64,000 nucleotides of DNA from Tubulanus polymorphus. Lineage: Eukaryota > Animalia > Nemertea. Position numbers and translations under genes: made by a program. The stretch is from contig NC_134028.1 in assembly GCF_964204645.1 (NCBI RefSeq), forward strand, positions 10,850,001 to 10,914,000, in the 5' to 3' direction. Below, one piece after another: positions 13,850 to 63,969 of this stretch (positions within the stretch are counted from its first letter, which is position 1; every line of letters begins with the position of its first letter). Under the pieces are notes generated by a model. The model did not search any database and was not told where the DNA came from. It worked only from the letters and a program-made list of their open reading frames with translations.

Positions 13850-14147
13850 AGCAAAAGCGCGCATGAATGCGCGCTTTTGCTTAATGCGCATGCGTTAATC
13901 ATAATTATACATTCATTATGTAAATTCTGTAAAATAGAAACAACCGAACACAGAAAATATCAAAACGTGTTCGCATTAGGCAAAACCGCGCATTCATGCG
14001 CGGTTTTGCTCAATGCGCATGCGTTAATCATAATTATATATTCATTATGTAAATTCTGTAAAATAGAAACAACCGACATGAAATATCTAAACGTGTTCGC
14101 ATTAGGCAAACCGCGCATTCATGCGCGGTTTTGCTCAATGCGCATGC
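13850..14147. repeat. ~120-bp tandem units, each with a GC-rich hairpin GCAAAACCGCGC-ATTCAT-GCGCGGTTTTGC (continued at 16240-16660)
   Basis: Read directly; three hairpins here and four in the second array. Confidence 0.9.
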
Positions 14148-14289
14148 AAACTTATTCATATATTAGTTGAAAAAAATAAAAATAAATTGGTTGGAAATTG
14201 TATGAATAATATTTATTTTAAAAAAGGGGGTTTTAAGTATTAATGTATTTAATACGTATTTAATACGTATTAGATAGATATATAAATAG

Positions 14290-15450: not shown

Positions 15451-16088
15451 TCATTATTTGGATCATTGTTCCATTGATCAATAAATTTCTTTGCCTTTGT
15501 TAACTGTTCTAAATATAACTGTAAATCTAGTTTATTAGATTTGATTTGATTTTCTTTCTTTTCTAAAGGCCTTAAATTTTTCCAACCCCAAATAAGTTTT
15601 TTATTGTATTCATCATTCATGTTAAATTTAGATATTGGTAACACGTGATCAATATGGTAATAATCCCCATAATTATCTACATTCATCTTATCATCGAATT
15701 GAAATATAATCCATGATTTGAGAAATTCATCTGAACAACCCAATAGAATAGATAGTGTTTCTGAATGTGTTTCTTTGTTGAATAATTGTGTTAATCTAGA
15801 TCTTAAGCATTGTTTAAATCAAAAATTAAGATCTGTTTGATATCTTTCTCTCATATATTCTGCCATATAATAATTATAATGTTCTATATTATCTTCTCGG
15901 TATTGTTTAGTATATAGTTTAAAACAAGTTTTACAACAATATTGAAAACCATCTTTGCTAATCTTACGCTTACTAAATTCTGTTAAAGCTAATTTATCTA
16001 ATTCACATTTAGAACACTTCTTGTAATATATATTTATAACACCAGTGTTATTTGTAATATTGATAGTTTGTGGTTGTTCTGGTTCCAT
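15435..16088 (-). pseudogene. HNH endonuclease, copy 2
   Basis: Same as copy 1. Confidence 0.85.
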
Positions 16089-17565
16089 TTATTATACGTA
16101 TTTTTTACTAAATTGGTTAATATTTTAGAATCCTCTTCCATTTCTTCGACCAACGTCATCCTTTTTCATTCCTCGCTGCTTTTGATAAATTGTTTCGATT
16201 CCTTGATATCTAAATAATACCACTGGGCAAATACCATTAAGCAAAAGCGCGCATGAATGCGCGCTTTTGCTTAATGCGCATGCGTTAATCATAATTATAC
16301 ATTCATTATGTAAATTCTGTAAAATAGAAACAACCGAACACAGAAAATATCAAAACGTGTTCGCATTAGGCAAAACCGCGCATTCATGCGCGGTTTTGCT
16401 CAATGCGCATGCGTTAATCATAATTATATATTCATTATGTAAATTCTGTAAAATAGAAACAACCGACATGAAATATCTAAACGTGTTCGCATTAGGCAAA
16501 CCGCGCATTCATGCGCGGTTTTGCTCAATGCGCATGCGTTAATCATAATTATATATTCATTATGTAAATAGAAACAACCGACATGAAATATCTAAATCAT
16601 ACCACTGAGCAAAACCGCGCATTCGTGCGCGGTTTTGCTCAATGCGCATGCGCTAATCCTAATTATATATTCATTCTGAATAGAAACGTCCGAACATAAA
16701 AATTCGCCAATCAGATTTACACAATACATTATACAAGTTGTTCGGCCGTTTCTTCCAATACATCATTTGATATCTATAAATACAATTTATAATTACAAAC
16801 ATTTTTCAATTGCTGGTAAATATTTAACTACATCAACAAATGTTAAACTTAATCATTGGAGTCTTAATGTTTTTGAAATTCTTATATAGTTTCTTCGTCG
16901 ATCTTTTGGCGATTCTTGTGTTTCTTGTGCTAATTTCTATTGGTTCGATATCCCCATTGCTGTTGATTCCTCAGTCAGAAAGAGTATCTTGAGTTTCTCT
17001 ATCACTTCTTGATGCGTATGGCGTTTTATTAATCTAAAAGATATTAGCGGCAACTCTAGCCATCTAAAAGATATACTAAATACACTTAAATATATCTAAA
17101 GGTTTCATATTTAATAGCCCTAATAACTACAAAAAACAGTACTTACATTTAGATTTAGAATTGTAAACTATAAACTCCTAATTTCGTTTCGAGAGATAGA
17201 ATATCCTGAGCGTAATGTTACAGCGCCTGTTCATTTCTTGCCACGTCATCTGGTTCCGGTTCTAGAGTGTTCTACACGTTTGTAATATTATGACTCATAT
17301 GTCTCGGCGTCATAGTAACAGCTGTAACAGCTGTGAATTTATAGATTTATTCAATAGTTCATTACATGAAATGTATATAGGCTCAAATAGAATCATGTTC
17401 TAGTATAAACAGCTATGCATTATTTCAATCACACTTTACTAACACTTTTAATGTTTAAAAATCTAACTCACACAAATATGAATATTGAAATAATGTTGTA
17501 AATATATACTTTTATATTGAATAATCTGTCAACTTAAATGTTATTCATTTACATGAATATTTTAA

Positions 17566-23065: not shown

Positions 23066-24299
23066 TTACAAAAAATATTCTTGAACAATGTGATTTCTTG
23101 TTTCTTGCCCGCGATTTCCAAGTACTTCACGAACAGCCTCTTGTTCTGGCAAATCGACTTCGAAGTTTTCATCAAAATCTAAAGGTTCATTCAAGTTGAT
23201 CGCTATATTATGTAAAACCGCGCACGCAGAAAATATCTTACAGACTTTTTTTGGCTCCATACGAATTTCGCCATGAGGACAGTGGAAACGCCGCTTCAAC
23301 ACTCCAAATGTTCGTTCAATGAGGCTACGAGTCATCTTATGAGCCCTGTTATAATTCTCTTCGGACCTGTCTCCGGGCTGATGAAATGGGGTCATCAAGT
23401 ACGGTTATAATGGATAACCGCTGTCTCCCAAAACCAGTCCATTTCTCAATCCTCCGATTGCAGGATTTTCCTCAAAATACCTATTATACAAAGTATATTT
23501 AGTGAAATCGCCTCAGTTGGTAACACGCACGCACACGCACACATATATTCAATACAGTTCTTGAAAATGTGAAACTTACCTCCCGATTTGTGAAGTTCGC
23601 AGGATGTGGCTGTCGTCAGTGGCTCCTGGCCAGCGCGCTACTACATTAGTAAAACGACCTAGAAAAATATCAATTTTCTGAATCAATATTTCTTTGATCA
23701 ACTACCAAAATATGAATATGCCAATCATAATTTGGTAAGGGTTAATTACCTTTGTTGTCACAAACAGCTTGAATATTCAATGAATGATACCGCATGCGGT
23801 TTACGTAGTAATTTTCGTGATGATGTGGTCTTTGTATTCGGATGTGTGTACAGTCGATGCACCCAATAACTGATGGAAAATGGGCTATGTCATAGAATCC
23901 TTGCATTATCTCGCGCTTTGTATTTACGTCGGTTGGCCATCGAAAAAATTTTGGTATTTGGTCAACGATTGCATTTGTTACTCGAGTTATTATGCGTGAA
24001 ACGGAACTCTTCGCTATACCAAAAGTATCCCCAATTACTTGCAGAAAATGCCCTGTGGCATAAAACCGAAGCGCGATTAAAATCTGCCAAACTACTGAGA
24101 AAGGTTTCCCTCTTTCGTTATCCTGTATAGGCGTCAACGCGGCTCCGAATGTTCTCACGAGAAAATCGATACCCTCTGGTCTGAATCGAAACCGTTCTTT
24201 CAACTCATCAGCGGTAAAAACCTCTAATGGGTTAGATAACCAACGAAATTCTCTTTCTTTTCGAGCTGGCAAAATGATACTAAAAAGTAAATGCGCCAT
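23066..24299 (-). pseudogene. Harbinger (HARBI1-like) DDE transposase; exons 24299-23750, 23658-23580, 23480-23066; premature TAA at 23405-23407
   Basis: ALRFYATG, GCIDCTHI, HSLNIQAVCD, ARWPGATDDS, LGDSGYP, YNRAH...IERTFGVLKRRF, CAVLHN; GT-AG introns keep the frame. Confidence 0.92.
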
Positions 24300-27148
24300 T
24301 TTGTATTTTTCCTTAGATTTTAAGACCGGTCTTAAATATTTAAGTCCACTAATGGACGGACTTAAAAATATTAGACTTAAGACTGTGGCTTAAGCTTAAG
24401 TCTTCTCTCTGGAACAGAAAATGTCCGGTCTTAAAAAAATAAGACTGCACTTAAGATTTAAGACCACTTTTTGGACTTAAGTCTCGACTATAGAACCGGC
24501 CCCGGAACAGTGTTTGGACTTATTAATGTATAATTTAGATACTTGTAGTTTCTAAGTTTATGTCCGTGTAGTTTTGATTAAACTGATGTTACTTGTGGTT
24601 GGTGGGGAAATACAAATTATTTGTATCATACATTTTTAATTTAGTAAGTTCATTCAAAATCTGGTAGAAGGAGGGACTGTAGTGTCCTTGTATTAGTGTC
24701 AGGTTGTTTATGTAACCTAAGAAGGAGTAAGAAGAGTAAGAAGGAAGTAGTTACGTGGCGGAATAAAGCTACTTTGTTGTATTGTCCAACTGTATTCTTC
24801 GTGTTTAAACAGTTTGACGTCACAACTGCGTTGACAATCATGTCCTAAGTATCTCTATTCTTGTTTTTGTTACTGATACCGTGTGTACATATTATATGTC
24901 GATGAATTGGATGAGGAAATCCTTTTCTCCTTCAAAATGTCATAAATGCAGGTCATCGTACATTTTTATGACATAAAACCAGAGGATAGCAGACCTTCCA
25001 ACCCTGAATTTTTTTCCAAGTAACACATATCTAAATTTTAAGTATTTTCAGAAATTTCTAAGGAACCATCCCTTTAACTGGTAATTGTCATGGAAAATAA
25101 GTAGTTTCCTTAACTGAACACAAAAATCAAAATTTCATCTATCAAAATCAAATGTTTTTTTTGGTGGGACCTTCTTCGGTACGTTCTGTCTCAAGTTTAG
25201 AATCGTGTGTGTCATTAGGCTCAGATTGAGATGATGGATTTAAAGAAAAGTCGGCATAGGCAAAATTGAATTTTCAGAGAAAGCACTGAAAAATCAATAG
25301 CTATGATATTAGTTCATTGTAAGAAACAAAGCGGACAAGTCTTGAACTGTCTGGACTCATAAAAATCAGCACCACTATTGGCATAAAATTTTGTGTCACA
25401 AAAAGTGTTCCCAGTCACTCAAAAGTGACTGCATACGTAGGTTAACCAATAATCAGGGCTGTTCTTGATGTGACCAACATGTGTGCAATCAGAATTTGGA
25501 GAATGCATCTTGACATTCGAATAAACAGATAAAAGATGTTATAAGTTATGATGATTTTAGTTTATTATAAAATGTACATTATTTATGAATATTTCTAGGA
25601 TCCAGCCCAAAACACAGAGGTATCACTTATTCACAAGAGCACATCTGTAAACAAGGCCGAAGGTAAGGAATATACAAGCAGGGTCCAAAAACATCATGCG
25701 CATTATATAATGATACACAAATACCAATCGCCTAAGAAAATTTCGAAAAAATTGTTAAATGGATAATTTTCGTAGCATCTAGAGTGATTCTAGAACAAAT
25801 CATACACCAATTATTTGCCGCTGCTTATGTAACTTTCTTTAGCCCGGCTTTGAAAATGTTATGTGGGGAAAAAAGGGAGCCATTTCTGAATTTTTGGCAG
25901 TATGAACATGTCCGTTATAGATTTTTTATTTGAGCCTGATCTTTTTATAATTTGTCAATTGAGCCATGCCAAGAATTTTTGGAAATTATTTCTGCCCTTT
26001 CAGGATTTTCAAAACTATTTTTGGCAAAGAAAGCACCTTTTCCACGATTCTGAGCAGACTAGATTACTGGAAGTGCTTATGTTCAAGTAGCCTATTTATG
26101 AAGTGCATAGATGTTATGTTTTTGACAACACTGCCATAAGGAATTCACAGACATCATCACTGTTTGGGGGTAATGTGGTGAGATGGTGTTTTGTAACGAT
26201 ACATTTCAAGGGCACTAGAAAACTTTGAGGGGGTTGTGCGTGCTGCACGTGGAACTGAACGAATCCATCCCTGATAAAAAAAAAAAGAATTGTATTGTTA
26301 TAATGGACGGCCATCCAGTGGACCCAAATCTTTTTCTCATAATGAAGGGCTAGAGGGTATACATAAAATACATGTACCCATAAATACGAACAATCAAAAT
26401 TGATAAAAGCGTATCAAACATTTCCCTTAAAAACTGAAAAAATGTGTAAAAACTCAGAATTCAGTGATTAATCCGAATCTTAACCCCAGCCAGTTTTTGG
26501 GCTGCTGCGGATGTGTCTAGGGTAGATCGACCTACATGTATTAAGTAAACATCAAACCACTGAAGCATCCTCAAAGCTTTCCAAAATAACTGGACTCCGC
26601 CTATGGATGGACAAAGAGAAAAGTGAATGCAAAAATCCACTGCGACTCTCGAGTCATAAGTGGACTAAAATGTAAGACATTGCTTTTCAATTTTGAGTAT
26701 TTTGAGAAACAGGTAGGCATAGGCCTATGTGTAGTCTATCCGATCCCATTTTGACAATTCCTTTTACATTACCCCTGGTTGGGTGGGGGAAGGAGAGGTC
26801 ATGTGTTACAATATTGATGAGCCTAATTCCACATTTCTTTCAATGTTACATATGTACCAGCAACACTTCTAAAACCTAATGGTCTATACAATTGAAATAG
26901 TCTATAATCAATTGAATCAGTTCAGGAGAAATTGTGATGTAAAATCTTACCCCGCCTAATCCAAATTTGCCGGAGTAAAGCCGGAGTAAATGTTATACAT
27001 GTACAGAAACCCTTCTTTTGTTGGACTATAAGTAATAGATATCTAAATGACAGAGACCAAATAAGGTGGACCCAGATTTGTGTGGTACAACTCGCAACTC
27101 ATCAAGATCTGGATTAAAAAATGGGAAGTCGTCTGTAGCACCGCTGTT

Positions 27149-36100: not shown

Positions 36101-39100
36101 AAGAATTATTTTGTAGTCAAATAAGACCAAAGATAAACAGGTCTACGTCCAAAATTTTGTAGGGTACAGGTTGCGCGGCAGGGAAGCTATTTTATATTTT
36201 CAAAAAATATTTTTCTCAATATGAAAAAATATTCAAATAAATCAACACAATTACCGGGCAATAAAATGAAACAATTCCAATATGGCGATATGTGAAATAG
36301 TTATATTCTCACCAGCAATGAGCATTTAAAATTCGCACATATACGGCACCTAGTCCAATGAAACGCTCGCCATTTATGGCTTTCCCATTATTATTTTGGA
36401 GTAGCCCCGGAATTCCCTGTATATCCCAAAAACAGCCAATCACATTTGCTCGTAGAGACAACGCCCCCCAATCGAGGTTATGGCAACCTTATATGCAAGA
36501 GCTAAGAATTTTCCCGCCAAAAACAGTTTTTGACGATTTTAAACTAAGTTGACCATGTCATTGACGGAGGTTCGTCATGTCTTCAATCGCGTCGATTATA
36601 CGTCGTTTAACCCGAGAATCAATGAAAATAATGCTCATATAAAAAAAATATCGATAAAGACACATACGAGCTGATTAAAAAAGACAGCAGGAAAGAACTA
36701 CCACTTATGCACTGGTATTGTTCAAAAGAATGCAACAAAGTAGCATCTTGAAAGAGAGGTAGAGAAGCTTTCACGAAAGTAACCTAAGTTGACCAGGCAT
36801 TTGTGAACTTGAGTGAATGTAAACTCCCGGAGAAGACGGTAGGAGCAGTAAAAGCAATATCCCAGCAGTTTACTCCGGTAGATCCCGATGATCCTACCGA
36901 TCTCCTACTGCATCAAAGAAATTATCTCTTCTAGACAAAAAGAGCAATTATTAGAGATGGAGGAGACAGCCAGGAGAAAGAACAACCTCATGGTGTTCAG
37001 ACTCCCGCACAACGCCGAATTGGAAAATTTCAAGAAAATGTTGGTGACAAGTGTAGGCCCGCGAGAGTCACATTCTTAACCGAAACAATGAGAGATGACG
37101 CTTGAAGGCGTAACACAATGCCAGAAAAGAAACCAGGGAGAATAAAAAAACAGATGATAATGAGGATTCAAGACTGTGTATGATAGTATCAGTGCAAAAA
37201 GATCTCACACCTCAAAGGCAAGAAGAGGAAGACCTTTTCAAGGCCCTGAAAAACAAGAGGAACCAATCCAAGGAGTCAGGGGACCAATGTGCTGTCTGGA
37301 TTCGTCGCAAAGAAAGAGTTGTGAACATAGGTAAGTACACAACAAGGGGCGAACCAGCAAGGAAGACAGCAAAATAACACATGGTGTAAATAGTTCTACT
37401 TCTTCGGGTGATGTTTCCAGTCATCATGTAAATGTGTTTAGAAACTGCACATGTATATATACAAATGTTGATCCGATGATGAATAAACGAGCAGAATTAC
37501 AAGCATTGATAGACCTAGATCGCCCCAACGTTAGTGGAGTCATAAATATGAAGCAAAAGAAGTGTAGATATAAGATTGAAGACCACGAGCTAACATTGGC
37601 TACGAACAGTTCCATAACCTTGAAAAACTTGGGAGAGGAGTAATCCTGTACGTACTGAGCAAACTGAAACCGCTCCCGTGTGAAGATTTGAAACATGGTG
37701 ATTTCTCTGAGTCGGTCTTCGTCGAATGCCACCTTCAAGATTATGAATGGAAAAAAGGAAAAATGGAAATGCTCGGATTCATCTATAAAAGCCCAAGCAG
37801 TGCTCCAGAGAATAGTGAAAAGCTAAATGACCTTCATAGGAAGGCCACAGAAAGAGATGACTCACATCTCATGATTATGGGAGACCTTAACTATCCCCTG
37901 GTGAACTGGGTAGACAATAAGTGTGAGACTGGACCCAACCACCCAGCTTATTCATTTTTGAAAGTGGTTAAGTACGTATTCATGATACAACACCACACAT
38001 CACCAACACGCTACAGAGTGGGAGAAAGGGCCAACATAGTGGATCTGGTTCTTTCCAACAGAGAGGACATTATCAATGATATTAGCAGTATCAGGACTAG
38101 GCAAGAGCGACCATTTTGTGCTGTTGATAAGTCTGAATAAGTCTGGAAAGCAGCTGTTGACAAGTCAACACGGATGTCAAGGTCATCAGGCAGGAGAGGC
38201 AGAAGTTGGATAAACCTAGATACACTCAAGTCAGTGCGAAGAAAACACCAGCTTTTTAGAAGATGGCTTTGGACAAGGAATGGCCAGGACTACCAAACCT
38301 ATATTACTGCAAGGAATAAAGCAAGGAAGATTAACCGAAAGGCGATGAAGAGACTAGAAGAGAAAATAGCTAACAATGCGAAAAAGCCTAAGGTGTCCAC
38401 CTTGATTGAATCCAGAAGTTTTCATCAAAATCTGTCTATTGATACGATCTCCATCACACACAACTGCATCATGATTCATCATGAATATACATGGTAGTGG
38501 TTTTTCCCCACTGACTCGAATAGGCACTCTCCACGTTCATGGTGTGACGATTTCATTTATTTCATACACTGTGTACGAAATTTGTTGGACAATTTATTTT
38601 CATAAATTGAACAATTTCCAAGATTCACTCCCCTCTTTCCCAATCACTTTTACTGCCCTTCTATAAAATTCACTGCTTTTCATGGCCGGCCGTGACGAAC
38701 CCTCCCAGTTGAGTCATTTGCAGTTTCCAAGAAAACTTTAACTAGGCAATAAGCAACTCACGCTTTTCATATACATACACAGATCAATACACCACATAGC
38801 AGCGAGTATATCTAACGCGCACGTGTGTGAAGCATGAATATACGTAAAAGGGCATGTGTTCTTCCGAAACGAAATGTAGTTCCAACAACAAATAAATAAC
38901 TAAATTGATAAATAAGCAACAGAATCCAATGAAATTCAATAGGGTTAGAGCTCTTATTACTGCATTTAATGTTTTAAAATTTCCGAAGAAAAACTAAGCT
39001 TCGTTTGGAAGTCATTTTGTACCAAAGGAAGAAAGTTTCATAAGCGATAACAAAATGGACTTAAGTCCATAATAAAGGTCCAATGGCCCTGTGGCTCACC

Positions 39101-47798: not shown

Positions 47799-50009
47799 TG
47801 TACCCAAATTGCGTACCGGTTGTTGAGCTCAGACCACTATTCCAAAATCTTCTATATCCTATAGCAAAAACAAGAAATTCGAGAGTTTAGTTCATATATA
47901 AGCGCGTAAATTTGGGGGAAATCCTGCTTTTGGCTCATAGGCCAGCATCTTAGCTACGCATTGAAGTGGTTTTCGCCCAGGGGGCCTACATTGAGAGAAT
48001 GTTTGAAGAAAGAAAGGTCCTTTAGAAATAGGTGATACAAAATTCTCTGAGACACACAATTTTCAGAACAAAGTTGCTATATTTACGGCGTCGTAGCCGT
48101 ATAGCAGTAGTAAATTCTATATTTACGACGGTTTTATATTGACATTGGGATTATGGTCTAGAGAGGAGAGGATTAGTGTCAAGAGGGTGAGAAGAGGGTC
48201 CAGAGGGTTAGGGTTAGGGTCCGTTTTACCCCCTAGGGATAGGATTAGGGTAAGGTGAGGCTATATTTAGTTAAAACATTCGAGTGGTTTTCAGCGAGCT
48301 CGGTGGTCTAGTGCCAGTGGTATGATGCTGCGCTAGTAATTTACTGGCCCAGGTTAGGTATATTCATGTCCGCGCGGGGCACCACTATCGATTGTGACGA
48401 CCATTATTGATTAGGAAAAGTGTGATGCGCGTTTTTACTACGCGTTTTGACATCGCGTAGTAAAATCATTCATAAAACCTGTCTATCAATGCAAATGAGC
48501 TAAAATCTTTTGGAATCAACCAATAAGATCGATCTTTATCACTTGGGGGTTGGTTTAGTGTATAAATCCGCATTTTAGACGAAGAAAATAGAAATCGAAA
48601 TATACCCTTTTTCAAGAGCAAAATTCGTCAGCTTAGGACCCGGAATAAGCGACGAATCATCAGGAATCGGAAGGTTTAGGATCTTAAAATTCAAATACTG
48701 AAGACCGCATGATTTTATTTCGTGTCAGGGCTGAGCGATCGCTGCCGGAAAATTCAATGTCTAAGTTTTGCGTTGAAGCGAGCGATACAAAATGGTGGCC
48801 GGCACTTGTTATTGAATGACGACGCGCCGCGCTGCTCGTGATGAGATCAATATTCAACAATTATTCATCGGTCTAGCGGTGAATTATTGTATTTATTTTC
48901 CGATTCATACTTACTCATCACTATATTTCTGAATATTAGGACAGATTTAGCGAAATGATCGGCAAAAAAAATTTTTTTGGGGCGCGGATCGCCACTACGC
49001 TCCCGTCGGTAAAGCGGCTGTTGAAAGAGGGAGGCGTCTAACGGGATGAATTGAGGCTTGTGACGGGCAAAAATAGAGGCGCGTGATGGGACAGTGAGGC
49101 TCCCGAGGGGATTTTCCAAAAGCAGCAAAATTGAAATATATATAAAATATTGTTGAAATTTAGCTCAAAACAAAACAAATGGATTATTATTTAGTTATTA
49201 TTAGTAGTATTATTACTTTTGCCTGGTTTATGTTTCTAAACTGATTGATTTTATTATGATATCATGAATATATTTCAAATTTCAGCGTTTTGAGCTAGGC
49301 CAAGCCTAATTTTCTGCTTTTCTTAACTAAAATCCATTTAGCAAATCATATATAAAATTGGTATATTTAAATCAATTTGCAATAGGAGCCTATGGCTATA
49401 GACCTAACTGACAGGCCTTGATAATCATGTTCATTCATTTCAAAAATTATGTAGTGAAAAAAATAATTTCTTCTGAAATCATATCAATATTTCACATTTT
49501 TTCTTGCCGTTACCATGGAAATCTAATAATGATAATCTATATAATAATAGATATTCCTAGATAAACTTGGGCAAACATGAACTATTGATAACTAGTTATT
49601 CTATCCCCTTTCTACATCATAACTTTTGATCTAACATCGATATTTTCATTATTTTACCATTTTTCGGCTGGTTTCCATGGAAACCATAGGCATTTGGAAT
49701 CAGATAAAAATTTTGGGTCTTTCAACTGTCACCTGAAAGTGCTATGAGTGTATTGCTCTTTAAATTTCTAGTCTATCTCTTTTAGTTTAAGAGATATTGA
49801 AGTTTGTTTACAATTCAATTCAAATTCAATTCAAAATATCTTTATTATTCCGTAATGCTTTACATTATTGGTTTTGCACAATAAAGATGAGAAAAAAAAA
49901 GAAGAAGAAAAACAGTATAAAATATGAGAAATTCCTTAACAGTATTTACATTTTGTACATGATAGGAAATTATATACATATCTGGAATAGTTAGGTATTG
50001 TTTCTTTAT

Positions 50010-53000
50010 TCACAGCGGGTTTGTTTTGCTAAGCCAAATATATTTGCCAAGGTTATGAGCCATCAGGGGTGAAGACATAATGGTGATAAATTTGTTTTCA
50101 GGGGTTGTAAATTTCTGTTCGGAAAAATGGGTATCAAAACATTTAATTAGTTCAACTCTGTAGCTATCAAATTTGGTACACTGCATAATAAAATGGAATT
50201 CGTCTTCAATTATATTACATGAGGTGCATAACCTATTTTCCCTTGGGAGGCCAGAATGCCTACCCCTTTCTATTAACAGATGGTGAGCACTCAGTCGCAT
50301 TCTTGTGACTTCGGATTTATAGGTTTTGTTGATGCTCATTGATAGATAGTGTTCCATGCTGAATTCAGATTTAATTTGGCAGTAGCATTTCAATTTGCTA
50401 AATTGGAGGATTTTTTGTTTCCAAAATATTTTGTATCTCTCAGTTAGGACGTGTCTTATAGATTTTGAGAGTTCAGCTAGTACTCTGTCAGTATCTAGCT
50501 TGATGTTCCTGTTCGTGGCTGTTAAAAGAGCATCAACAAAACTATTCCATGTACATTTTTTTGACATCATTTCTTTAAAGACTGTATTGATAAGATGACC
50601 TTTTCGTGCGCAAGCGTGTTCCCAGTATCTAATGACTTGAGTACAGGCATTGATGTACATAGGCAATCTCCCTAGTACCCCTAGGACAGCTAGATTTGTT
50701 GTTTTTCGGTTAACATTCAGAATAAATTTACAGAATTTAATAATCAGTCCAGTTAGATGAGTATCACTGTCAAATGCTTGCTCAATACAATATGGTTTAC
50801 CAGAGGTCATCTTCTTGCTTAATGTAATATTTGGCAGCCAAATTTCACAGCCGTATAAAGAAATGGGCATGACAAGGCTGTCGAAGAGTTTCAGAGAGAT
50901 ATCTGGTGAACAATTTTGTATCCCTATCATTTTCATTATTGATAGCATGGCCCGGTTGGCAGTGTTGTAGAGTATTTCTTTTGCTTTTTTGAATGAACCG
51001 TTGGCTGTAAAAATTAATCCCAAATATTTGAATTCTTTAACAATTTCAACACTCTTCCCATTTATATCGAATTCAACATTGATTGGAATTTGCCCCTTTT
51101 TGTTAAAGATTATAACTTTACTCTTAACAGGGTTGATACTGAGTTTCCATTTTGAGCAGTAGTTAGAAAATTTATCCATACATTTCTGAAGACCTTCTTT
51201 CGAATTCGATACAATGACCAGGTCGTCGGCATAAGAGATAGTTAATAAATGTTTCGCCAAGTAGCCTAGTACAGGATCACAAAATTCATCAAATATATCG
51301 GCGACATCATTTATGAAGACATTAAAGAGTAACGGGCTTAAAATATTACCCTGTTGTACACCATTGTGACACTGGAAAGGCTGTGATGTGGAGTTTTCAT
51401 TAATCTTTAGGCTCCACGAAATATTTTGATACATACTTTCGATAAGTCTGGTGAACCTCTTTCCAAGAGCTAAATTGCTAATTTTGTGGATCAGTCCCTC
51501 ATGCCATATTGAGTCAAATGCTTTTTTAAGATCGATAAAGCATGTATATAATTTTTCCGAGGCACTAAGTTTCATCTGAATAAGTCTTTGGAGTGTGAAA
51601 AGGTGGTCTGTTGTTCGGCATTTAGGCATAAATCCAATTTGGTTTTTGGTGATAACATTTTTGGTCTCCAGGTATGACATAAGCCGATTGTTCAATACTG
51701 AAGAGAATAATTTGCCGAGACAGCTGTTTAGGGTTATGCCCCTATAGTTATCTGGGTTGCATTTGTCTCCATTTTTATGGATTGGTACTATCAACCCTTC
51801 AGCCCATTGATGCGGGAAGTGCCCGCTTGAATACACAAAGTTGAATAGTTTGGCCAGTGGGTGAATCAGGATATCAATGCCATATTTCAAAATCTCATTT
51901 GTTATACCATCAAGACCAGGCGATTTGTTGTTCTTTAGTTTCTGAACAGCAATTCGAATTTCTTTGTCGGTGATCAAGAAGTCTAATTCAGTGAATATAT
52001 CATCATTTGACAAATTTTTAAGGGGATGTTTTTGCCTTGCATCATTTACATTATCTTGAAAAATTGATTTGAAATGATGAATGAATGGTTCCAGGTCATC
52101 AATAGAGTTACGTGAGGATCTGTTAGTGTTTGATAATTTTTTAACTTATTTCCAAAACTGTTTAGGATTCCTTTTCGCGTTTCTAAGTTCGTCAAATTGC
52201 CCCTGCCTAAACTCAGCACGTTTAGACCTTAGAAGTTTGCGGTGGAGTTTTTTGCGCATAAAATATTTTTGCCTATTACATTGACTGGGGTATTTATGCA
52301 GGATCTTGCCGAAATGTCGAACTTTAGTTCTTGACCTTTCACATTCTCTATCAAACCACTGTTTGTTATCAGTTTTCATGGGGGGGTTAGGATGTCGTTG
52401 GGGTTCAGCTACTTTTTCATTTAGGATTAGCATAAAATCGTTGACAACAGTATCTACAGTGTCATAGCTTGGGTTCAGAGATTGCCATACTGCATCTTCG
52501 CAGTAGTTTTGGAGTTTTGAGATGATGTCGTCGTTTGTCAGAATTTCTATGACGTCATCAGGGCTTTTAAACTTCGAGAATTGTCTGTTATTGAACTTTT
52601 TGGATTTACATTCACTGCGATTCCCTTCTCCCATATAGTGCGATTGGAAATCAATCCCAAAGCCTATTGCACTGTGATCTGATAATTCTGAGAATGATGT
52701 GTGGACATAGAAGTATTGAACCAGGGGAAAAATAGTGTCGTTTACAATTGCCAAATCAACAACACTGCTACCATTCCACTGATGGCATGTAAACTCCCCG
52801 AAATGATCACCTGGGGTCCTGCCATTTAGGATGCACAGGTTATTTGTTTTACATAAGTTAATCATATTTTTACCCATCTTATTTACTGTTTTGTCTTTAC
52901 TTTTCCGTTTTTTCAGTATTGGTATGTCTAGATCTATACTAACCATATTTGGTATATATTTGTCATCTGGATTAATTGAACTTATGTCAGATACCTCCCC

Positions 53001-53514
53001 AATTCTAGCGTTAAAATCACCCGTAATTATTACATTGCCCTGGCTCGCATATTTTAAATACTCTAATTCAAGTAGGCCCTAATTGAAAAGTGTCATCCGA
53101 ATTTTTGTTACCAAAGGTAGAATTTGTTGGGCTGATATAACATGATGCAATGAAAAGGGGAGTATTCGAGTTCTGCCCTGTACTGTCTTGGACTTTCAGC
53201 CAAATAATTTCAGATGAAGGTTGTTCAATTACTTTTACACAATTTTTGAGATGATTTTTACATAGTATCATTATACCACCAGAATTGCGCCTAGCATTTT
53301 CACCGCGATTTCTGGTGACCTGGTAGTTGAAATAGCCAGGTACCTGGATGTCATCGGATTCAGAGGAATGGGTTTCAGTTAGACAAATGATGTCGTACGG
53401 TTTGATTTGATCCAGAAATAGTTTGTCTTCAATTTTGTTATGATAATGACTGACCAGGCCCTGGATATTCCATGTACAAACATGCAACATAACTCTATCG
53501 GACCTTGGAATCAT
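50010..53514 (-). pseudogene. LINE ORF2: APE endonuclease, reverse transcriptase and C-terminal zinc-binding motif; broken by frameshift/stop
   Basis: WNIQG, CLTETH, GDFNAR, VVDLA, SDHSA; KSPGLDG, NYRGIT, FIDLKKAFD, QGNILSP, YADD, FKYLG; HLLIERGR...CTSC...EDEFHF..C. Confidence 0.92.
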
Positions 53515-53539
53515 ATTGGTTGTTCCGAGATCAGACTAC

Positions 53540-55549
53540 ACGTAATATAGTGAATATTATTTTCCAAAAAGTCCGAGTGATGAGCGTGTGGTTACAGCCA
53601 AGTTTCTAGCGAAGGATCGGATTCCTTGCCCGTCGTTAAAGTGTACATTGTCCATGAAGAGTCGTTTGTTGTTTAGGTTCTCATGTCTGCAGACGTATGC
53701 GTTAGAATCTTTAGCGGCCATACTTTCTATGATGGCGTTAAATAGTCTCGACTTTACACTCCGGATATCGGCGTTTAATCATGTTTATGAGGTCGATCAT
53801 TGTTGTTACGCACTCGTCCGCGCAGTTAGTGTTTCGAATATCATTTGTCCCAACATGTAGTATGATACAATTCGGGTCGTATGTATCTGGGAGACTGTCG
53901 ATCACGTTTGCAGCTTCAGTAATTGTGTACGCCCGGATTTTTTCTACTTCGCAACTGTCTTTCACAAACCTCCTTTCGTTAAGGTATTTCAAGTTTGACT
54001 CACCGATTACAAGTACACTTTTCTTTGATCGCGATTGTATGTGTTCAGACCGGTGACTGTTCCCATCGTGCGGGTAGCTATCTTGGTGGCTTACCGACGA
54101 CTTTCTTTCGCCCGAATAGTTTTTTCCGTGGTCATGCTCGCCGATTGGTATATCTGGTCTGTGTGTGTCCCGCGGTTTACGTATCTGTACGGTAGTTTTA
54201 GCATTCGTATGCAAATAGTCGGTAGTGTCCTCTTTTTTGTTTAGCATATTCGCGACACGGTTTATACTAGAGTTTTGTTCCTCCATATTTGCCTTCATAT
54301 CGTGTAGATCTTGCTTTAGAGTATCTGTATTGTGTGTTGATTGTAAGATATCGCGGATTCTCGAATCGTTTCTATCCAAAATTTTTCGGACAGTTTCTGT
54401 GGTTTTAATCATGTCTGGAATGTTTTCACAATATTGCGATACATTATCAATCCTCTGCGCACAGTTGTCAAGCTTATCGTTGATGCCTCGTAACTGACTA
54501 GTTCTCGCGCACTGGCTGACTTCCTGTGTTAGTGATACTATTGCTGCCTGTATGGTCTGAAACATTTGTATGATGTCTTCCCCATCCAGAAGAGTCTCTT
54601 TCGTTTGGCACGCAGCAGTTGTTGTTGGTTCAGTCGCTATCTGTTTGGTGATAGTATCTGCGGCCTCCGGGTTTACAGCAATCTCGCACATAGTGGCAGC
54701 ATCACAGTATGATTTGATATTCGTCACATCAGTTTTTTTGGAAGGCCTGCACTTAGGACACATGTACAGATCATCAATGTTTTGCACTAGGTTTTCTACC
54801 TGGTCCTTCGGTAGTTTGGTACATTTGAAGTGCGTCCAGTTTTCGCACAGAGAACACTGGATCATCTGCGTGTTATCTGGATCATTACACTCGATACAGT
54901 TATTCTTTGTTGCCTTGGTAGGGCTGGCAATCGATAGACGCTTTAGTTGTCCCCTTTGAGTAATTCTGTTCTGGATATCATGGAAGTGTTCGTTCATCCA
55001 TAGGAGATACGAGTTTCCTTGGACGTGTAGTTTGGGTGATTTGGCTGTCTTTCCTTTTGCTGACCCACGGTACAGGGTGATATGGACCGATCCAAGCGAA
55101 TTTTCATTACTACCCTTGTAGATCGATGAGAAGTGAAGGCCGTGTGCTCCCCTGTCAACAGGGTTACCATACATTTCACGTAGAACGATTATATACGCAG
55201 CAGTTTTTTCCGTATCAAATTCAATAACCATAGAGTTTGATTTTTCATCAATGTTGACGTTGTTCTCGGGGGTTGTACTGGTCCTGGTCGACGCTCTTGA
55301 ACTTTTAAGTTTGTCTCTGAGATAGATATAGGCTCGATTAAGCTGTTGAAATTGTTCAGTTGCCTCGGCAGCTACGTTTTTATCCGGATGAAGCTGCTTT
55401 GCTAAGTTTATGTACTGTGTTCTCAGTTCTTCTAAGGAGTTGGGTGTGCTCGATAGCTTGAGGACGGATAGAATCCCTTTGATGTCGGATTTCGTCATAG
55501 TCGTTTCTCGCGGTTTCTTGTTGTTGTTATTGTTAATGGGCGCCGCCAT
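53540..55549 (-). CDS. LINE ORF1 with J-domain, PHD finger, coiled coil and SGNH esterase (frameshift near 53745)
   Basis: ELRTQYINLAKQLHPDKN...FQQLNRAY; CIEC...IQCSLCENWTHFKC...YMCPKC; VLVIGESN, ILHVGTND and DNVHF after the shift. Confidence 0.85.
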
Positions 55550-58500
55550 CTTGGATTTATATCTCCGATCGTTCTGGTATTTAAACAATGCCTTAAAACT
55601 CTTGAATACACTCACGTTTCTTGTTGGTTAGCTTATAACTATTCTCGAGTATCTTGTCTTATAAGCTGTTGCAGTTTTAGGTAACTGTGTTGGTTAATTC
55701 GTTGGTAATTTTTGACTTTCTTAGAGTAGACTCAATTAACCCGCCATCGCTCTGGTGGCGCCACCACTGTTACATGAAATATTGCCTTCTTAGATCACAG
55801 TTTTTGTGTATTGAAACATGAAGACACTTTTCGCTCAAATTTTCAAACTTCAATTTACGATATCTCGAAAACTACTGAAGATAATTCAAAAATTTAAAAA
55901 GCATATTGTTATTTGAGCACTCCCCATTCCAACAAGCTTTCTTTCAGTAAGATTGGAGCTATTTGAATTTTTTATGGATATAGCTACCCGGGTTCGAGTC
56001 TCGCTCTATCCGCTCTATTTTCTCCAACTCTTGATTTTTCTAAGTCATGCACCCTAGTGCGCATGCGCAACGCGAAATAGCCAATCAGAATGAAACGTCG
56101 TAAACTTGACTAGTAAAATCTTTCGTAAAATCTGCGAAATGATGTTTCAATGTCTAAGAAGGCCGAATCCCCCACCGTGTTTGGTACCCTTACTCCTAGT
56201 TAGTTACCTAATCGTTGGTGGTAAGCTTTTTATAATCAGATGGGCTTATACCAACGTTAGGGATGACAAGGACCAAAACACGGTTGAAAAAAGTAACACT
56301 TCAAAAATATACTTTCTATTCACTTCAGTCCACAATTAATGGCTTAATTCACAAACTAACACAGGTACCTTCCGAAATAATCCAATTTTATGTATGTTTC
56401 GAGTGGTTAATGAACATTATTTTGAGAAATTAATTAATTTCTCCACCAATTTCGCCATTGGCCGCCATTTCTCTGTATTGCACATGTGGCATGATAAGAC
56501 AAGGGGACCTACAAGGATTTATATAAAACTTCCAAGACGAAACGACAATTTTTATTTTTGATGGTTTTCCAATCTATATTTCAGATCTTCGTGTTTTCCA
56601 TAATAAATAATGAAATAATAAATTCTGGTATAAGAAAAATGTGAATAAGTGTTGATTTCTTAATTTTTTTCAATTTCGTCGTTTCGCTTCGTTAGTTTGT
56701 GCTGTTGTCCTGGCCTCAGTCCACAGGTGCCAGCACCTCCAGTAATTTTTAAAATGGCAGCTGTTGACCCGACGGAAATTTACTCTCACTTTACGGCCGA
56801 TTTGCACATGGATTAAGATCGTCAGGTGAGGTGTTATAGGTATCAGACAAACTACGAATCTGTTGTGCGTCGATTACAACAAAAATTGGACGGATATCTT
56901 AAGAGACAATGAAATGCCAGGCAAATTACTCGTCAGTCAAATTGGCTGACGAAGATTTCATACAAAAGTGACCTTCCCATTCCTGACTGTGGTTTGTGAA
57001 AATATCCGATTGTGAAACTAAACCACAGACAGGTTACTGACTACCTTACTCCTCCAAGCAAAAAAGTCCACGGAATCCCTTATTTCATCATCGATCTGTC
57101 TCCAGGATCAATGGATTTCATCTGTTCATACATAGGCCTAACCGAAATTCGTTACCTCTTATCTATCCCATTTGCAGGTACTATTTTTGGTTCGGCCCTA
57201 CGCCTCTTTAAGCTACTAACCTCATTGTGGTCTGATGTCTGTTTGCGTTGCAAAGTCATCCACACACAACCACACGGCCTTGAAATTCGCTTAATAGTCC
57301 CACTTTTACCGCAATCGTTTTATAGACGGTCTAGACTGGTTGCCTGTCCCATTCTCTATTCTAATTGAAGATGTTACGCCCCAAGTGAGAATACAACCCA
57401 AGTTGAAATATAGTTGCATCTAAAATCCGAACTCCGCTACGACTGAAACGCTGATGTGTTAGTTAATTAGATGGCGCCAGCTACCGGTGCAAAAATAGTC
57501 GAGGCTCGAATTTATCCTTTTTTCACCAGGTTTTTGAACTGATCAAAACAGTAAGCTCATATCGATATGAAATCTTTAATTAACTAAAATTCACACAATT
57601 CATTCTATATTTAAACTTGACATGGAGTGTCTGATTTTTGGGCATTCCATATCACTTTCCGAGTAGGCATAGTATAGTGTTCCTGGACCCCTTTAAAAAT
57701 GTACTCTGAAAAAAGAATATTCTCTATTTTGTTATGTCATTGAAGATTCTCTTCTATGGTTGTGCCAACGCAACTTCTTCTAATTTTGATTCCATGTGTG
57801 AATTTGCATAATTGATTTGCATTTTGCAGGTATGAACTTGTATTGAATATTCAAACATTTTTGTCCATTTGAGGATTATGAGTGTCCATAGATGGAATCA
57901 GGTTTCTTTTTAACGTTTTCATTACACTTTGATGTGTTGTCTTGATGCCTTTCCTAGGGGCATCGTATAATTTTTATGGACTTTTGCTTTACTGAAGTCC
58001 ATTTTTGCTCATGTATGACACGTGCCTCCATTGGTACAAAATAACTTGCGAAAGAAGCTTAGTTTCTCATCTGAACTTTCAAAATGTTCAATGTTGTAAT
58101 AATCTCTAACCCTCCTGCACCACCCTCCTGTAAGGTTTGTTAGAACTCTACAGCCGGTAAGTCTTAATAAATCTTCTTGAAAGTTTGTGTATGAGTTGGA
58201 ACAGGTAAGAGGTGATATTGAAAATGGTGATCTATCAGCTAGATGATATGTCCAACATGACAGCCATGTCTGCCATCTTGAAATTTGGCACCATACAGCC
58301 TGCCAACCTATATTGATTTCCTTGACCCTGGTGTATTAGCAGGTAAGAGGTCTACCCCTATTAAAATTGGTGACCACCAATTGTCTAATATTGCTGCTAT
58401 ATTATCCAATGTATGATTTTCTTCATTTTCAATAATCATTAGCATTGTCACATGTTATATACCTGTAGAAATCTGTGACTAATGAGTATACTCTACACCA

Positions 58501-59413
58501 GGGGAGTTGAAAATTTGAATACACTACTACGTATTAGTCAATTTTTATGAAAACCATGTTATGTATTGATAATGATGTTAAATGGCCATTTGTCTACAAG
58601 GTATATATTGATTCCCCTATGTAGATTCAGTTATTTTCGATTTGAGGAATTTCTATCAACCTCAGGTACATGTATATCGTACATAGTTTAAAATGACCCT
58701 TGTGTAAAAGATTAATTTTGTGCTGTAATTATCAAAAGTGTCGGAATATTCATTATTGCCATACCACGTACCAACCATTGTGGGAATAGACTATTTCTGT
58801 TGCATGGCATGTTGTCTCTACTAAGAGTCCTCCATGGTTGTACATCAGGGGACCAGTCAAAAAATGAAAAAATAGTTGAGAAAAAAATGTTTCGGTTCTC
58901 CATCGTAGGTTTGACACATATGTATTAATGTTGTAGTCATCGAGAATTAATCATATCTCTACAGATTTTGTGCATATTTACATGTCAATAAAGATATTTT
59001 CAAATAAGACCATAGCGTTGTGTTTCCATTGCTGAAAAGGAATAGGATCGATTCGATGCAGCTTACTTGATTCCTTTATTCGACTAGGGCCTACATCTTG
59101 TTCAAAAAATGGCGTCCGGCTGTTAAGACGTGTTGGTACAGTGGAGATTTAAAGTTTCATTTCGATGTCCTTCCACACTTGCTTGATTTATAAGATCTAC
59201 TCAATCTATGCAGTGCTGTTCTTCTGAATGAGACAACGAAGTGTACAAAGAAATTAGGTAACTTTTTACTGGTATTTAGTGGTTCTATAGTATTAATCTA
59301 TAGATATCGTCGATAGTCTGTCCTTAAGTCGTTCACACCGTAGTTGCCAAACGTTACCATAGAGACGTTGTGTACCTGTCAAAAAGTCATGGTCGACTGG
59401 AGATAATCTAAGT

Positions 59414-60373
59414 ATGGGTAGACCGAAGAAAGATCGCTCGACGAAACCTGCCACCGCTACCGCAGATAACAAAGGCACAACGCCGAGTAACAATAACGTT
59501 GAACCCGCGTCAAATACTCAAAGCGCTCCGAAACAACAAACTCTGATCACGCCAGTCACTAGTACCCCGACTGCAGCCTCAGACCCCGAATCGAGGAAAA
59601 GATTCCCCTCTGAAGAATTCTCACCTCGTGAAGGTATAAAAAAACCCAATATTCCTCCAAACGTGAATCAACAGGCAACGAGGCCACATAATGAAAATTT
59701 CCCCGTAGACGAAATTGCGAGCACCGTCTCGAACCTGCTAAATAACGAGGAATCAACCGCGGGTCTAGTGAACCGAATCGTGTCGGCCATAAAGTTCACA
59801 TTTCAAAATCAACTGGAACATCTTGTAAAAACGATCGATGATCAAAACGAAGTCATAGCTGATCTTAGTGCGAAACTGGATCACCAGGAACAATATTCCA
59901 GGCGAAACAATATCATTGTAAACGGTATAAAAGAAAATTCTTCCGAAAACACGGACCAAATAATTCTAGATCTCGCACGTAAGATCATGCCTGATGACGC
60001 TCCCGCGATGGAACTCCGAGATATCGATCGATCTCATCGCCTCGGGCCCAAAAGAGATGGAACAAACCGCCCGATTATCTGTAAATTCGTCACTCACCGA
60101 GCGCGGCAATACGTGTTGGTTAATCGTAAAAAGCTCCCTAAAGATGTTTACGCTAATGAAGACCTGACGAAAAGACGCCAGGCGATTCTGTACGAAGTCC
60201 GAAAATTATGGAAATCTAAGCGTATTTACGGTTTTTACGTTCGCGATGGTAAAATACTCGTCATTAAAACCGAGCGCGAGAAAGCGATTGAAATCAGCGA
60301 CCATTCATCAATATCGGCTCTCAACAAGGAATCAACCCCATCAGCGAACCCGAACGACACCACATACTACTAA
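59414..60373 (+). CDS. LINE ORF1p (coiled coil plus L1-type RRM/CTD)
   Basis: EQYSRRNNIIVNGIKE, IDRSHRLG, RPIICKF, NEDLT. Confidence 0.88.
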   Translation: MGRPKKDRSTKPATATADNKGTTPSNNNVEPASNTQSAPKQQTLITPVTSTPTAASDPESRKRFPSEEFSPREGIKKPNIPPNVNQQATRPHNENFPVDEIASTVSNLLNNEESTAGLVNRIVSAIKFTFQNQLEHLVKTIDDQNEVIADLSAKLDHQEQYSRRNNIIVNGIKENSSENTDQIILDLARKIMPDDAPAMELRDIDRSHRLGPKRDGTNRPIICKFVTHRARQYVLVNRKKLPKDVYANEDLTKRRQAILYEVRKLWKSKRIYGFYVRDGKILVIKTEREKAIEISDHSSISALNKESTPSANPNDTTYY

Positions 60374-61379
60374 TCCGATCCCGTCAACAATTGCGTTGCA
60401 TTCGTGTTTTGTTCATATCTGAAATCCGTACACTTCTATGTTCGACCCCGTTAGCGAACTCGAACGACTCCGCGTACTAGTGTTCCGATCCGTTCATTAT
60501 ATACTTACATCACATTGTGTTCCGTCCATCGTGATATCCGTACCATACCCTTCTACCTACAAACCTAACCTATTCTACGATCCGTTGCGAAATTAGACCC
60601 TTTAAGGGACTAAATGTTGCATTGTGCATTACTTTCAGTTTCCGTTTAAATTACGCACCTTCCTTTCAACGACTCGACAGAATAATTCATACCGTTTCGA
60701 TGGGCACTAAAAATCGCTCCATGGTCCGCACTGCGTTAATTGTCTCGGCGATCCTTAACGTTCGATATGAACGAAATCCGAGACTAAGGGAAGTCTCGAA
60801 CAAAACCTCTTTTAGTATATATTTGTGGTGTTTGACTTAACTGCATTTCACTTCGTTTATTGTTGAATTTGATAATATGATACTAGATGTAAATTCAAAA
60901 GGTGTTACATTTCTTTTTAAATCATGCATTTATTCGAACTCTCAATTCAATTCTGTGTCTGGACTCGAGATTGTACCTCCTTTAAACCTCTTCCTTATTA
61001 TCAATGAGTTATAATAGGGAACTTTATTTTCTCTACTCATCGACTCGTTTGTTGGTTACTATCCGAGCGAATCGGAATATAAAACTACTTGTTATCCTTC
61101 CTTGAATACGTAGACATTTGGTGTATAGAGATATGTAACACGTCTGCCCGTTCTATTATGTACCTATCATTAGTACATTTTGATTAATTTTCGATAATAT
61201 AACTCCAGTGCGATATCCCCAAGTTATCATCACTATTACTCTGCATATGCGATTAATACTGTGTACATGTCTAAAGGACAAAATTTTTTTTTGTTGTTTC
61301 CAATTTTTCTACTGTGTAACCATCTACCCGCATTTCGCCTGTAAATTATGTTTCATGATGATATATTTTTGGATAGTGA

Positions 61380-63969
61380 GAAGGATCCCCCCCGACACTA
61401 CTTATTATTCCATTGACTCGCTTAACGCTCTTGTGAACACCAACGACCAACAGAGTGGATTATTTCTATACCATACCAATGTTAGAAGCATGAACAAAAA
61501 CTTTGAAAATTTAAGAGATACAATAACTAGTTTAAACTTTCACCCACAGTCATTGGGATATCCGAAACGTGGGCGCTAGACGATCACGATAATGACGTAT
61601 TATACAAACTAGACGGGTACAATAGCTTTTTCTTAAATCGTCATTTTAACCATGCAGGCGGTGTGGCTATATACATCGATGACCATTACCATTGTAAAGT
61701 ACGTAACGACCTGAGTATAGAAAGTAACACTTTTGAATTGTTATTTTGTGAATTGTCGATTTCACGTAATGAAAAAATATTAGTCGGTGTCTTATATCGA
61801 CAAGGAGGTTAACCAATTGATCAGTTTACCAATGAACTTAATTCAACATTAGCTAAATTGCCTAAAAATAACGTGTTCATTATGGGCGACATCAATATAG
61901 ATCTCATCAAAGCATCCACGCACAACAAGACCCACGACTTCTCAAATAACATGGTTTCGCATTCATTACAACCTCTTATTTTAAAACCAACAAGAGTCAC
62001 CGAAACGTCAGCAACCTGTATTGACCACATATATACCAATGTTGACAACCAACGATCCGGCATATTGACTACTGATATTTCAGACCATTATTCTACCTTT
62101 GTTATTTACCCGCGTGCTCGACGGCTTAAAAATGCACCGTACATTATCCATTTTAGACCTATCAATGAACTCAATATTTCGGATCTTAAAGCGCGCTTGG
62201 CCAACGAAGACTGGAGTGACATATACACAACCAATGATCCAAACGTAGCATACAATCTCTTTTTCACGAGATACAAGATGCTCTACGACTTAAGTTTTCC
62301 TATTCTAACTAAAAATGTAACTCGTCCTTCGTGTAAACCCTGGCTGTCCGAGGGCTTACTAAATTCTGTCAAAACCAAATTGAAATATTACCGAATATAC
62401 AAACGAACTAAGCGCGCTGATCATCACGAACGTTACAAGAAATATCGCAACAGGTTGAATCGATTGCTTAAAGCTGCGCAGAAACAGCACTTCGCACGAG
62501 CATTAATTGCTGCGAAACATGACCTGAAAAAAACTTGGTCGATTCTAAACCAAGTTATCGGTAGCCCTAAAGATATAAATATATGCCCACCATGTAGAGA
62601 CATAAATGGTGTAGACCTTGACCCTTTAGATGTAGCCAATAAATTCAATTCTTTCTTTACTAACGTTGGTAGAAACTTAGCGGACAAAATTCCAACAACC
62701 GAAATCTCTCCCCTATCATACCTCCAACCCGATTCTTCAAATAACCTGTTCCTAAACCCAATTATTCAGCAGGACATTTTATATATTGTCAATAATTTGG
62801 ATGCTAATAAAGGTGCTGGGCCTGATGATATAATACCTAAAATTGCTAAGTCTGCCATCTCTGAAATAATGGAACCATTACTATACATCTTCAATAAGTC
62901 ATATTCAACGGGGATAGTTCCCGACGCTCTTAAAATCGCCAAAGTTACCCCAATTCATAAAGGCGGTGATAAAAATGAAATCACTTACTACAGACCTATA
63001 TCAGTCCTTTCGTTCTTTTCTAAAATCCTAGAAAAAATTACCTACGCCCGTATAATATCCTTTGTTGATAATCATCATATCCTTAACCCTCATCAATATG
63101 GCTTTAGGAAAAATTCATCTACGGAACTTGCACTGCTTGACTTTACAGATCATATCTCAAAACAGGTTGAAAATGGCCAATTCTCAATAAGTATTTTCAT
63201 TGATTTATCGAAAGCTTTCGATACAATCGACCACTCAATTTTGATCCAAAAACTACACAGATTAGGCATAAGAGGCTTACCGAATGATTGGATTAAAAGT
63301 TATTTATCAAATCGTAAACAATATGTAGACTACAACAAATCTCCTTCCAGTTATCAGCCCATCTCGCACGGTGTCCCACAAGGTTCTATTCTTGGACCAT
63401 TACTTTTTCTTTTGTATGTAAATGACATAATACATGTTTCTAAGTTATTCAAGTTTATACTGTTTGCTGACGACACTACCATTTCTTGTAGCAACAAAGA
63501 TCCTATAGAATTAATTCGTGCCGTAAACCGCGAACTGATAAAACTATCTACGTGGTTTAGAGCAAACAAACTCTCGTTGAATGTAAAGAAAACAAGCTAC
63601 ATGAAGTTTGGCAATTTTAGATTACCAGACAATACAGAAATCAGTATAGACAATCAACCTGTTGCTCATTCGTGCACCAACAAATTTCTTGGTGTGATTT
63701 TTGATGAAAACCTAAACTGGTCAGCACATACTGCCTATACATCTGACAAAGTTACACGTGCTATTGGTTTATTGTTCAAAGCCCACAAATGTCTACCCCA
63801 GCCCATTTTGCCCACACTTTATAATTCCTTAGTTTTACCATATTTCCAATACTGCAACATTGTCTGGGGACGTACATATCCAATCCGTCTGTATCATCTT
63901 AGCATCCTACAGAAACGGGCTTTACGACTTGTATATAATGTACCTTACCTAGCACACTCTTTAAACTAG
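61380..63969 (+). pseudogene. LINE ORF2 (APE and RT), frameshifted near 61548 and 61810
   Basis: HTNVRS, GISETW, GGVAIY, MGDINID, PTRVT, IDHIY, SDH; YRPIS, FIDLSKAFD, GVPQGSILGP, FADDT, KFLG. Confidence 0.92.

Follow-up and report, generated by a model that had tools for sequence, protein, structure and literature searches.

The locus analyzed here raises the question of whether a non-LTR retrotransposon (LINE) of Tubulanus polymorphus encodes a J-domain of its own and, if it does, what such a domain would do for the element. The window, i.e., the whole stretch of 64,000 nucleotides that was analyzed, had been interpreted earlier from its letters, and this sequence-only reading placed a J-domain with the HPD motif at the N-terminus of an ORF1 protein, ahead of a PHD finger and an SGNH esterase. 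A Pfam scan recovered DnaJ at that position, in one frame from the ATG at 55549 (aa 29-82, E 5.4e-11, 42.9 bits against a cut-off of 27.8). The motifs ILSVLKL (55474-55454) and LNRAY (55342-55328) fall within the J-domain, and VHITLYRG (55087-55064) and LHVQG (55030-55016) within the domain that follows it, termed domain X. Helices of the J-domain lie at positions 24-38 and 48-71 of the model, and helix II has Arg or Lys at ORF1 residues 43, 47 and 51; in the family comparison, helix II of this copy holds two Lys/Arg versus a median of four (range 2-6, n = 55). When a model of the J-domain together with domain X was compared by fold, a Tim14-Tim16 chain came first (Z 8.1), on a par with ordinary J-domains, and the viral J folds 1faf (Z 7.4) and SV40 chains were matched as well. 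By sequence, the J-domain is nearer to cellular DnaJ-type domains than to viral ones.

Table 1. Features of the LINE and of its ORF1 protein (window positions; aa, residues of ORF1)
Feature	Position	Strand	Basis or remark
APE-RT LINE, full-length, RTEX-like, dead copy	49813..55769	-	5,957 bp; read junctions and end sequences
TTACA 5-bp direct repeat, likely target-site duplication, 5' side of element	55770..55774		
TTACA 5-bp direct repeat, 3' side of element	49808..49812		
5' UTR, 220 bp	55550..55769	-	from element end to ORF1 ATG
ORF1, open part, 603 aa (P0001)	53738..55549	-	ATG 55549, stop 53738
J-domain, aa 22-82	55304..55486	-	Pfam DnaJ, model helices, fold matches
HPD motif, aa 54-56	55382..55390	-	between helices II and III
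Domain X, aa 100-200, predicted helix-grip (TBP/KA1-like) fold	54950..55252	-	model pLDDT 91.7
PHD finger (C4HC3), aa 218-267	54749..54898	-	Pfam PHD 26.9 bits, cut-off 24
Likely coiled coil, about aa 320-445	54215..54592	-	inferred from weak Pfam coiled-coil matches and heptad count
SGNH esterase blocks I-III (GES 54004, GTND 53851)	53750..54025	-	Pfam, motifs
SGNH esterase last part, DxxH (DNVH, 53652-53641), out of frame after the deletion	53557..53739	-	
ORF2, APE endonuclease and reverse transcriptase, broken	50010..53514	-	Pfam
3' UTR with AATAAA (49846-49841) and short TTGAA-type repeat tail	49813..50009	-	

The J-domain lies 220 bp inside the 5' end of the element, in frame and intronless. 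The ends were located with reads and contigs of four runs (X1-X4; at most three samples from two studies, and X1 may be the source of the window). An element-free junction joining 49807 to 55770 is supported by 118 X4 reads and by X1, X2 and X3 contigs, and the stretch that these reads skip lies between two TTACA repeats and terminates in AATAAA and a TTGAA-type tail. The joined form may derive from other copies of the deeper repeat that flanks the element; the element ends are fixed regardless. ORF2 starts 43 bp past the original ORF1 stop and encodes a reverse transcriptase (RVT_1, 137.5 bits) and an APE endonuclease (Exo_endo_phos, 33.5 bits), both over the Pfam cut-offs, and two lesions disrupt it, a frameshift near 53075 and a stop codon at 52146-52148. 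With APE and RT, a simple-repeat 3' tail and 5-bp TTACA repeats, the element has the hallmarks of an APE-type non-LTR retrotransposon; it has no long terminal repeats, and an Rfam scan of 49500-57500 returned no match. A second 5' junction, at 55753, was observed in X1 and X4, and its contig spans the J-domain with three differences; therefore, at least one further insertion of the element exists.

The remainder of the window contains further mobile DNA. Positions 1-17000 form an AT-rich (21-26% GC) Polinton/Maverick-like region with an A32 ATPase, a weak capsid match and a chromodomain ORF, and with a family B polymerase followed by an intein/LAGLIDADG-like frame (695-2296). An ORF pair at 11900-13109 is seemingly repeated at 14290-15499, with 129-bp tandem arrays. 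A DDE_Tnp_4 (Harbinger-type) fragment is found at 23742-24389 and an isolated APE fragment at 37580-38140. Positions 56197-57043 hold a sharp-ended, very high-copy repeat, with an X4 depth of ~2,400 compared to ~20 on the LINE, and a second LINE on the plus strand (59363-63969) has an ORF1 with a weak Baculo_FP_2nd match and an ORF2 with APE and RT.

According to the sequence-only reading, the J-domain, PHD finger, coiled coil and esterase share a single frame. This is correct for the J-domain, the PHD finger and esterase blocks I-III, whereas the last esterase block lies in another frame, which ends at 53557. The coiled coil is likely, with weak Pfam coiled-coil matches and 17 of 36 heptad a/d positions hydrophobic. 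Lipase_GDSL_2 was matched at aa 538-600 with E 1.6e-5, which is under the Pfam cut-off because the esterase domain is broken. The distance from the block III Asn to the block V His is 65 residues here versus 78-90 in 19 complete relatives, and therefore ~15-25 codons have been deleted from the esterase of this copy. Contigs of X2 and X3 depart from the window at 53750, and by eye their loose letters lead, without a change of frame, to the family motif S-x-x-PPR-x-D, so the missing stretch is present in other copies; the X1 contig agrees with the window at 53750. All four SGNH catalytic residues are present in this copy, split by the deletion. In a PDB search with the family profile, the best SGNH match was the ZfL2-1 ORF1p esterase (4c1b, E 7.4e-18), and the Pfam scan of ORF1 gave no RRM and no CCHC knuckle. 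The GES that had been pointed out in place of GDS is indeed present at 54004; it carries no meaning, as 20 of 22 family esterases retain the catalytic Ser and the preceding residue is variable (S 11, D 8, E, N, C), and a dead esterase on account of GES was ruled out. Among the same 22 rows, two of them truncated (query and best 150 of 258 matches), Asn is kept in 21, Asp in 15 and His in 18.

With its esterase deletion and broken ORF2, the copy at 49813..55769 is dead, a point that was absent from the sequence-only reading, as was the association of the J-domain with domain X as one travelling unit. Read variants in ORF1 comprise 34 substitutions, 8 synonymous and 26 non-synonymous, with the HPD untouched; such a ratio resembles neutral decay and would carry no signal of selection on the J-domain in this organism. 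Other copies contain a 1-bp deletion at 54733. Judged by these variants, the LINE family is decaying in this organism.

To place the protein among its homologs, ORF1 was compared by phmmer with 1.84 billion representative sequences, which gave 258 matches at E ≤ 0.001; the best 150 were analyzed together with the query (151 proteins). Profiles for J and X were made from 31 of the same matches and the query itself bears a J-domain, so the counts are biased toward J-bearers. Within this set (query and best 150 of 258), domain X was found in 68 of 151 proteins, J and X together in 59, and J, X and esterase in 22. The HPD is intact in 51 of the 59 J-X proteins, reads HLD in two and is replaced in six. 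The J-domain thus extends beyond this copy and its HPD is conserved in the family, both of which the sequence-only reading had treated as decisive for its proposal. The median start of the J-domain is residue 8, and X follows it at a distance of 19-42 residues in all 59 proteins, with a median pairwise identity of 40% for J and 33% for X. Domain X without J occurs in nine proteins, seven of which start within 25 residues of X and look truncated, and a weak X-like domain without J was detected in five further matches (11-18 bits). The order J-X-esterase is common to 21 other proteins with ~16-26% overall identity. A complete C4HC3 PHD is present in 14 of the 22 proteins with J, X and esterase, and therefore the J-domain does not depend on a chromatin reader.

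The homologs either form clusters of 3-9 members, 95-99% identical, within megabase contigs or sit on contigs about as long as an element (4.8-7.9 kb), as transposons do. Together with the best SGNH match to the ZfL2-1 esterase, these contexts are indirect signs that the homologs are LINE ORF1s. Seven cluster members lack the HPD, six being fragments that begin past J and one having the loop deleted. In metagenome contigs, 2 of 107 matches were homologous loci, of 1.9 and 2.0 kb, which are too short for ORF2; viral contigs gave 20 pattern matches and no relative. In a word-indexed search, none of 3,893 candidates proved to be a homolog of P0001, and the same type of search with alignment A1 found one unrelated PWWP-esterase protein only. 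The linkage of J-X-esterase to a reverse transcriptase is seen in this copy only. Judged from its homologs, the J-domain is a real feature, shared throughout the family, of a variant form of esterase-type LINE ORF1p.

All six proteins without HPD (P0005, P0013, P0024, P0097, P0104, P0151) belong to Branchiostoma, in three species, and they group as a single clade in the tree of X (SH-aLRT 96, 90 columns); therefore, the HPD was lost once. The HPD loop of this lancelet clade is swapped for a longer basic stretch, and its members carry host esterase or GPCR annotations. Across the three species, the clade retains the J-like fold and X without HPD, and thus Hsp70 stimulation is dispensable in that clade. 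Outside of it, the HPD is intact in 51 of 53 proteins, with His and Asp in 53 of 53. An HPD that is kept across such divergence quite probably points to Hsp70 stimulation, and recruitment of host Hsp70 by the J-domain may reasonably be inferred.

The sequence-only reading had also noted an unassigned region of ~100 aa between the J-domain and the PHD finger. This is domain X; its model, built with 65 sequences (pLDDT 91.7), consists of two strands, a helix, three strands and a helix, and its predicted fold class is helix-grip. Structural matches were tied (YgiF Z 7.4, SAD-B KA1 7.2, Chk1 KA1 7.0, METTL16 KA1 6.9, RNase H3 N-terminal 6.4) and none reached Z 8, below which a match may reflect shared arrangement alone. 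Foldseek found nothing for domain X at E ≤ 0.001 (best E 0.007), and RnlA_toxin was weakly matched by 3 of 65 members (best E 0.0022). KA1 domains (SAD-B, Chk1, METTL16, TUT1) and the TBP-like N-terminal domain of RNase H3 have a helix-grip topology like that of X (Z 6.4-7.2, rmsd 2.5-4.1); however, identity of domain X to them is 7-12% and its median net charge is -4. This charge would not favor binding of nucleic acid or acidic lipid, and the slot of domain X, where J-less relatives carry RNase H modules, suggests a nucleic-acid role. The assignment of X as an RNase H3 hybrid-binding domain was unconfirmed, given that Z 6.4 ties with unrelated folds and the net charge is acidic. The joint model (pLDDT 90.6, pTM 0.82) predicts that J and X pack against each other in a fixed arrangement, as a single unit, and PDB and BFVD searches yielded no entry covering J and X together. 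Some other copies of the element have an insertion in domain X at 55191-55194, with loose ends on both sides in X1 and X4 and on one side in X2.

Among 27 long J-less matches scanned, 15 contain RNase H1 N-terminal (Cauli_VI) or RNase H modules. These sister ORF1s have the same PHD-coil-esterase scaffold downstream and hold the RNase H module in the first slot, in contrast to the J-X unit that stands there in our protein. A tree of the esterase with 46 rows requires three or more changes of the HPD-type J label, and the esterase half of this copy groups there with RNase H-type relatives (96/89). A single origin of the J-bearers on this tree was rejected (p-AU 0.0003; 21 vs 25 rows, 173 columns) in a test in which the row of this copy is half-length, branches are long, and P0020 (truncated) and P0152 were excluded. 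The J-X unit appears to move between esterase lineages, and the tree fits a J-X cassette that was exchanged among ORF1 scaffolds or repeatedly replaced. Exchange of ORF1 has been proposed earlier (PMC3905857). NADAR domains were noticed on related ORF1s, after the esterase (P0004, aa 805-933) or before it (P0103, aa 547-674), and in locus L001 (1075-1902) J-X is apparently, by eye, joined straight to a NADAR-like start.

RTEX is the likely clade of the LINE, based on C-terminal motifs that we take to be RTEX-type and on the esterase ORF1. An esterase-bearing ORF1 is reported for RTEX (PMC3905857). A long ORF1 of this kind is unlike RTE proper and is shared with CR1 and L2, hence it is not diagnostic of RTEX. 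When the RT was compared to solved structures, R2 and L1 both scored near 95-100 bits, which does not resolve the clade, and no RTEX label was found in the supplement of PMC11203168.

With the type IV ORF1p of CR1, L2 and RTEX elements (ZfL2-1, PDB 4c1b), as described in PMC3905857 and PMC4120745, the protein shares a likely coiled coil followed by an SGNH esterase with S/N/D/H, ahead of APE-RT; in contrast to them, an N-terminal J-domain, the helix-grip domain X and a PHD are added here. The accessible text of these two papers contains no J-domain, and DnaJ occurs there only as a false match in a reference title of PMC4120745. Our literature search, beyond whose reach were Repbase Reports, Dfam and most subscription journals, found no report of a J-domain in a LINE ORF1; there is an appreciable, though lesser, chance that a repeat-database entry already records it. 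Polyomavirus T antigens and Rki of phage RB43 are likewise multidomain proteins of selfish elements that begin with an HPD-containing J-domain, and viral J-domains hijack Hsp70, which a His-to-Gln change in the HPD abolishes (PMC3486835). Unlike the viral class C J-proteins, our J-domain is encoded by a non-LTR retrotransposon, and its sequence is nearer to cellular DnaJ. The LINE J-domain would presumably act like a viral class C J-protein.

We propose, with a probability of roughly 0.45, that the J-domain of active family members directs host Hsp70 to the RNA-protein particle of the element itself. If it behaves as in ZfL2-1, ORF1p would self-associate via its coiled coil and the esterase would collect the particles on membranes. 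The HPD and helix II would then stimulate ATP hydrolysis by Hsp70 next to the ORF1p oligomer, and Hsp70 would loosen or release that oligomer, comparable to the action of auxilin, which lets Hsp70 strip clathrin coats. The freed RNA and ORF2p could subsequently enter the nucleus for target-primed reverse transcription. Domain X would likely position the client, like the partner domain of a class C J-protein, and the J-X unit would be an optional, exchangeable accessory, its place being taken by RNase H modules in sister ORF1s and its HPD having been lost in one lancelet clade. The element's own particle is favored as the client because the J-domain sits on a self-associating, membrane-binding class of proteins and because the PHD is often lost while J-X stays; ZfL2-1 ORF1p self-associates and binds membranes, and counted against our proposal is that it was dispensable in HeLa assays (PMC3905857). 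The client itself is a guess, and particle remodelling, ORF2p folding and an anti-silencing client are all compatible with the present data.

Hsp70 could instead be recruited against a host target, with PHD and X docking ORF1p on chromatin or a silencing complex that Hsp70 would then dismantle, in the manner of SV40 T antigen, which dismantles Rb-E2F via Hsp70. We regard this as doubtful. In this copy, as in 14 of the 22 full-architecture proteins, X is followed by a PHD, with Met and Trp at positions that we take to be those of an H3K4me cage, and some relatives have other counter-defence-like additions such as NADAR (P0004, P0103). However, eight of the 22 are without a complete PHD and six of these eight nevertheless keep the HPD, and the aromatic residue that methyl-lysine readers have ahead of the first PHD Cys is missing. 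Also counted against it, PMC4120745 describes the PHDs of LINEs as untested. An unlikely alternative in our estimation is that the J fold serves the J-X unit structurally, or as an adaptor, and does not stimulate Hsp70, like the J-like Tim16. The predicted J-X packing, the fold retained without HPD in lancelets and the Tim14-Tim16 chain as top match, tied with ordinary J-domains, are all consistent with such a role; yet the non-lancelet proteins preserve the HPD, above all its His and Asp, together with basic residues in helix II, and a purely structural loop would need none of these.

Hsp40/70/90 prime the hepadnaviral RT, and by the same token the recruited Hsp70 might fold or mature ORF2p in cis on the shared RNA. 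HPD conservation and the start of ORF2 just past the original ORF1 stop agree with this idea. It is nonetheless rather improbable: this ORF2 is one of very many of its kind (1,357 relatives at E ≤ 1e-40 out of 7,992 scored), esterase matches without J and X outnumber those with them (57 vs 22; query and best 150 of 258), and the RT shows no visible special folding need. Least credible is a J-domain that does nothing for the element, whether it was captured by chance in this copy or came from fusion of a LINE to a host DnaJ gene. Although this copy is dead, the J-domain is located inside the element ends, the same J-domain recurs at the second 5' junction in X1 and X4, and the 21 other J-X-esterase proteins have diverged to ~16-26% overall identity, so that this explanation is already largely refuted. 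A bolder extension of our proposal, in which a widespread invertebrate LINE lineage encodes its own Hsp70 co-chaperone and a mobile J-X cassette, replacing RNase H modules, drives ATP-dependent uncoating of the particle, is put forward tentatively and at less than even odds.

Database names for some of these ORF1s include 'curved DNA-binding protein CbpA', PAF acetylhydrolase and GPCR, which is a warning for annotation. PMC3905857 leaves open the remodelling of ORF1p particles between assembly and reverse transcription and the role of esterase-type ORF1ps. A J-domain encoded by the element offers a one-residue switch (HPD to QPD), for which the HPD-less lancelet lineage is a natural control, and if uncoating by J-X is true, it would provide a direct handle on the removal of ORF1p ahead of reverse transcription. 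If the J-domain recruits Hsp70, hijacking of this chaperone, known from viruses and phages, would extend to non-LTR retrotransposons.
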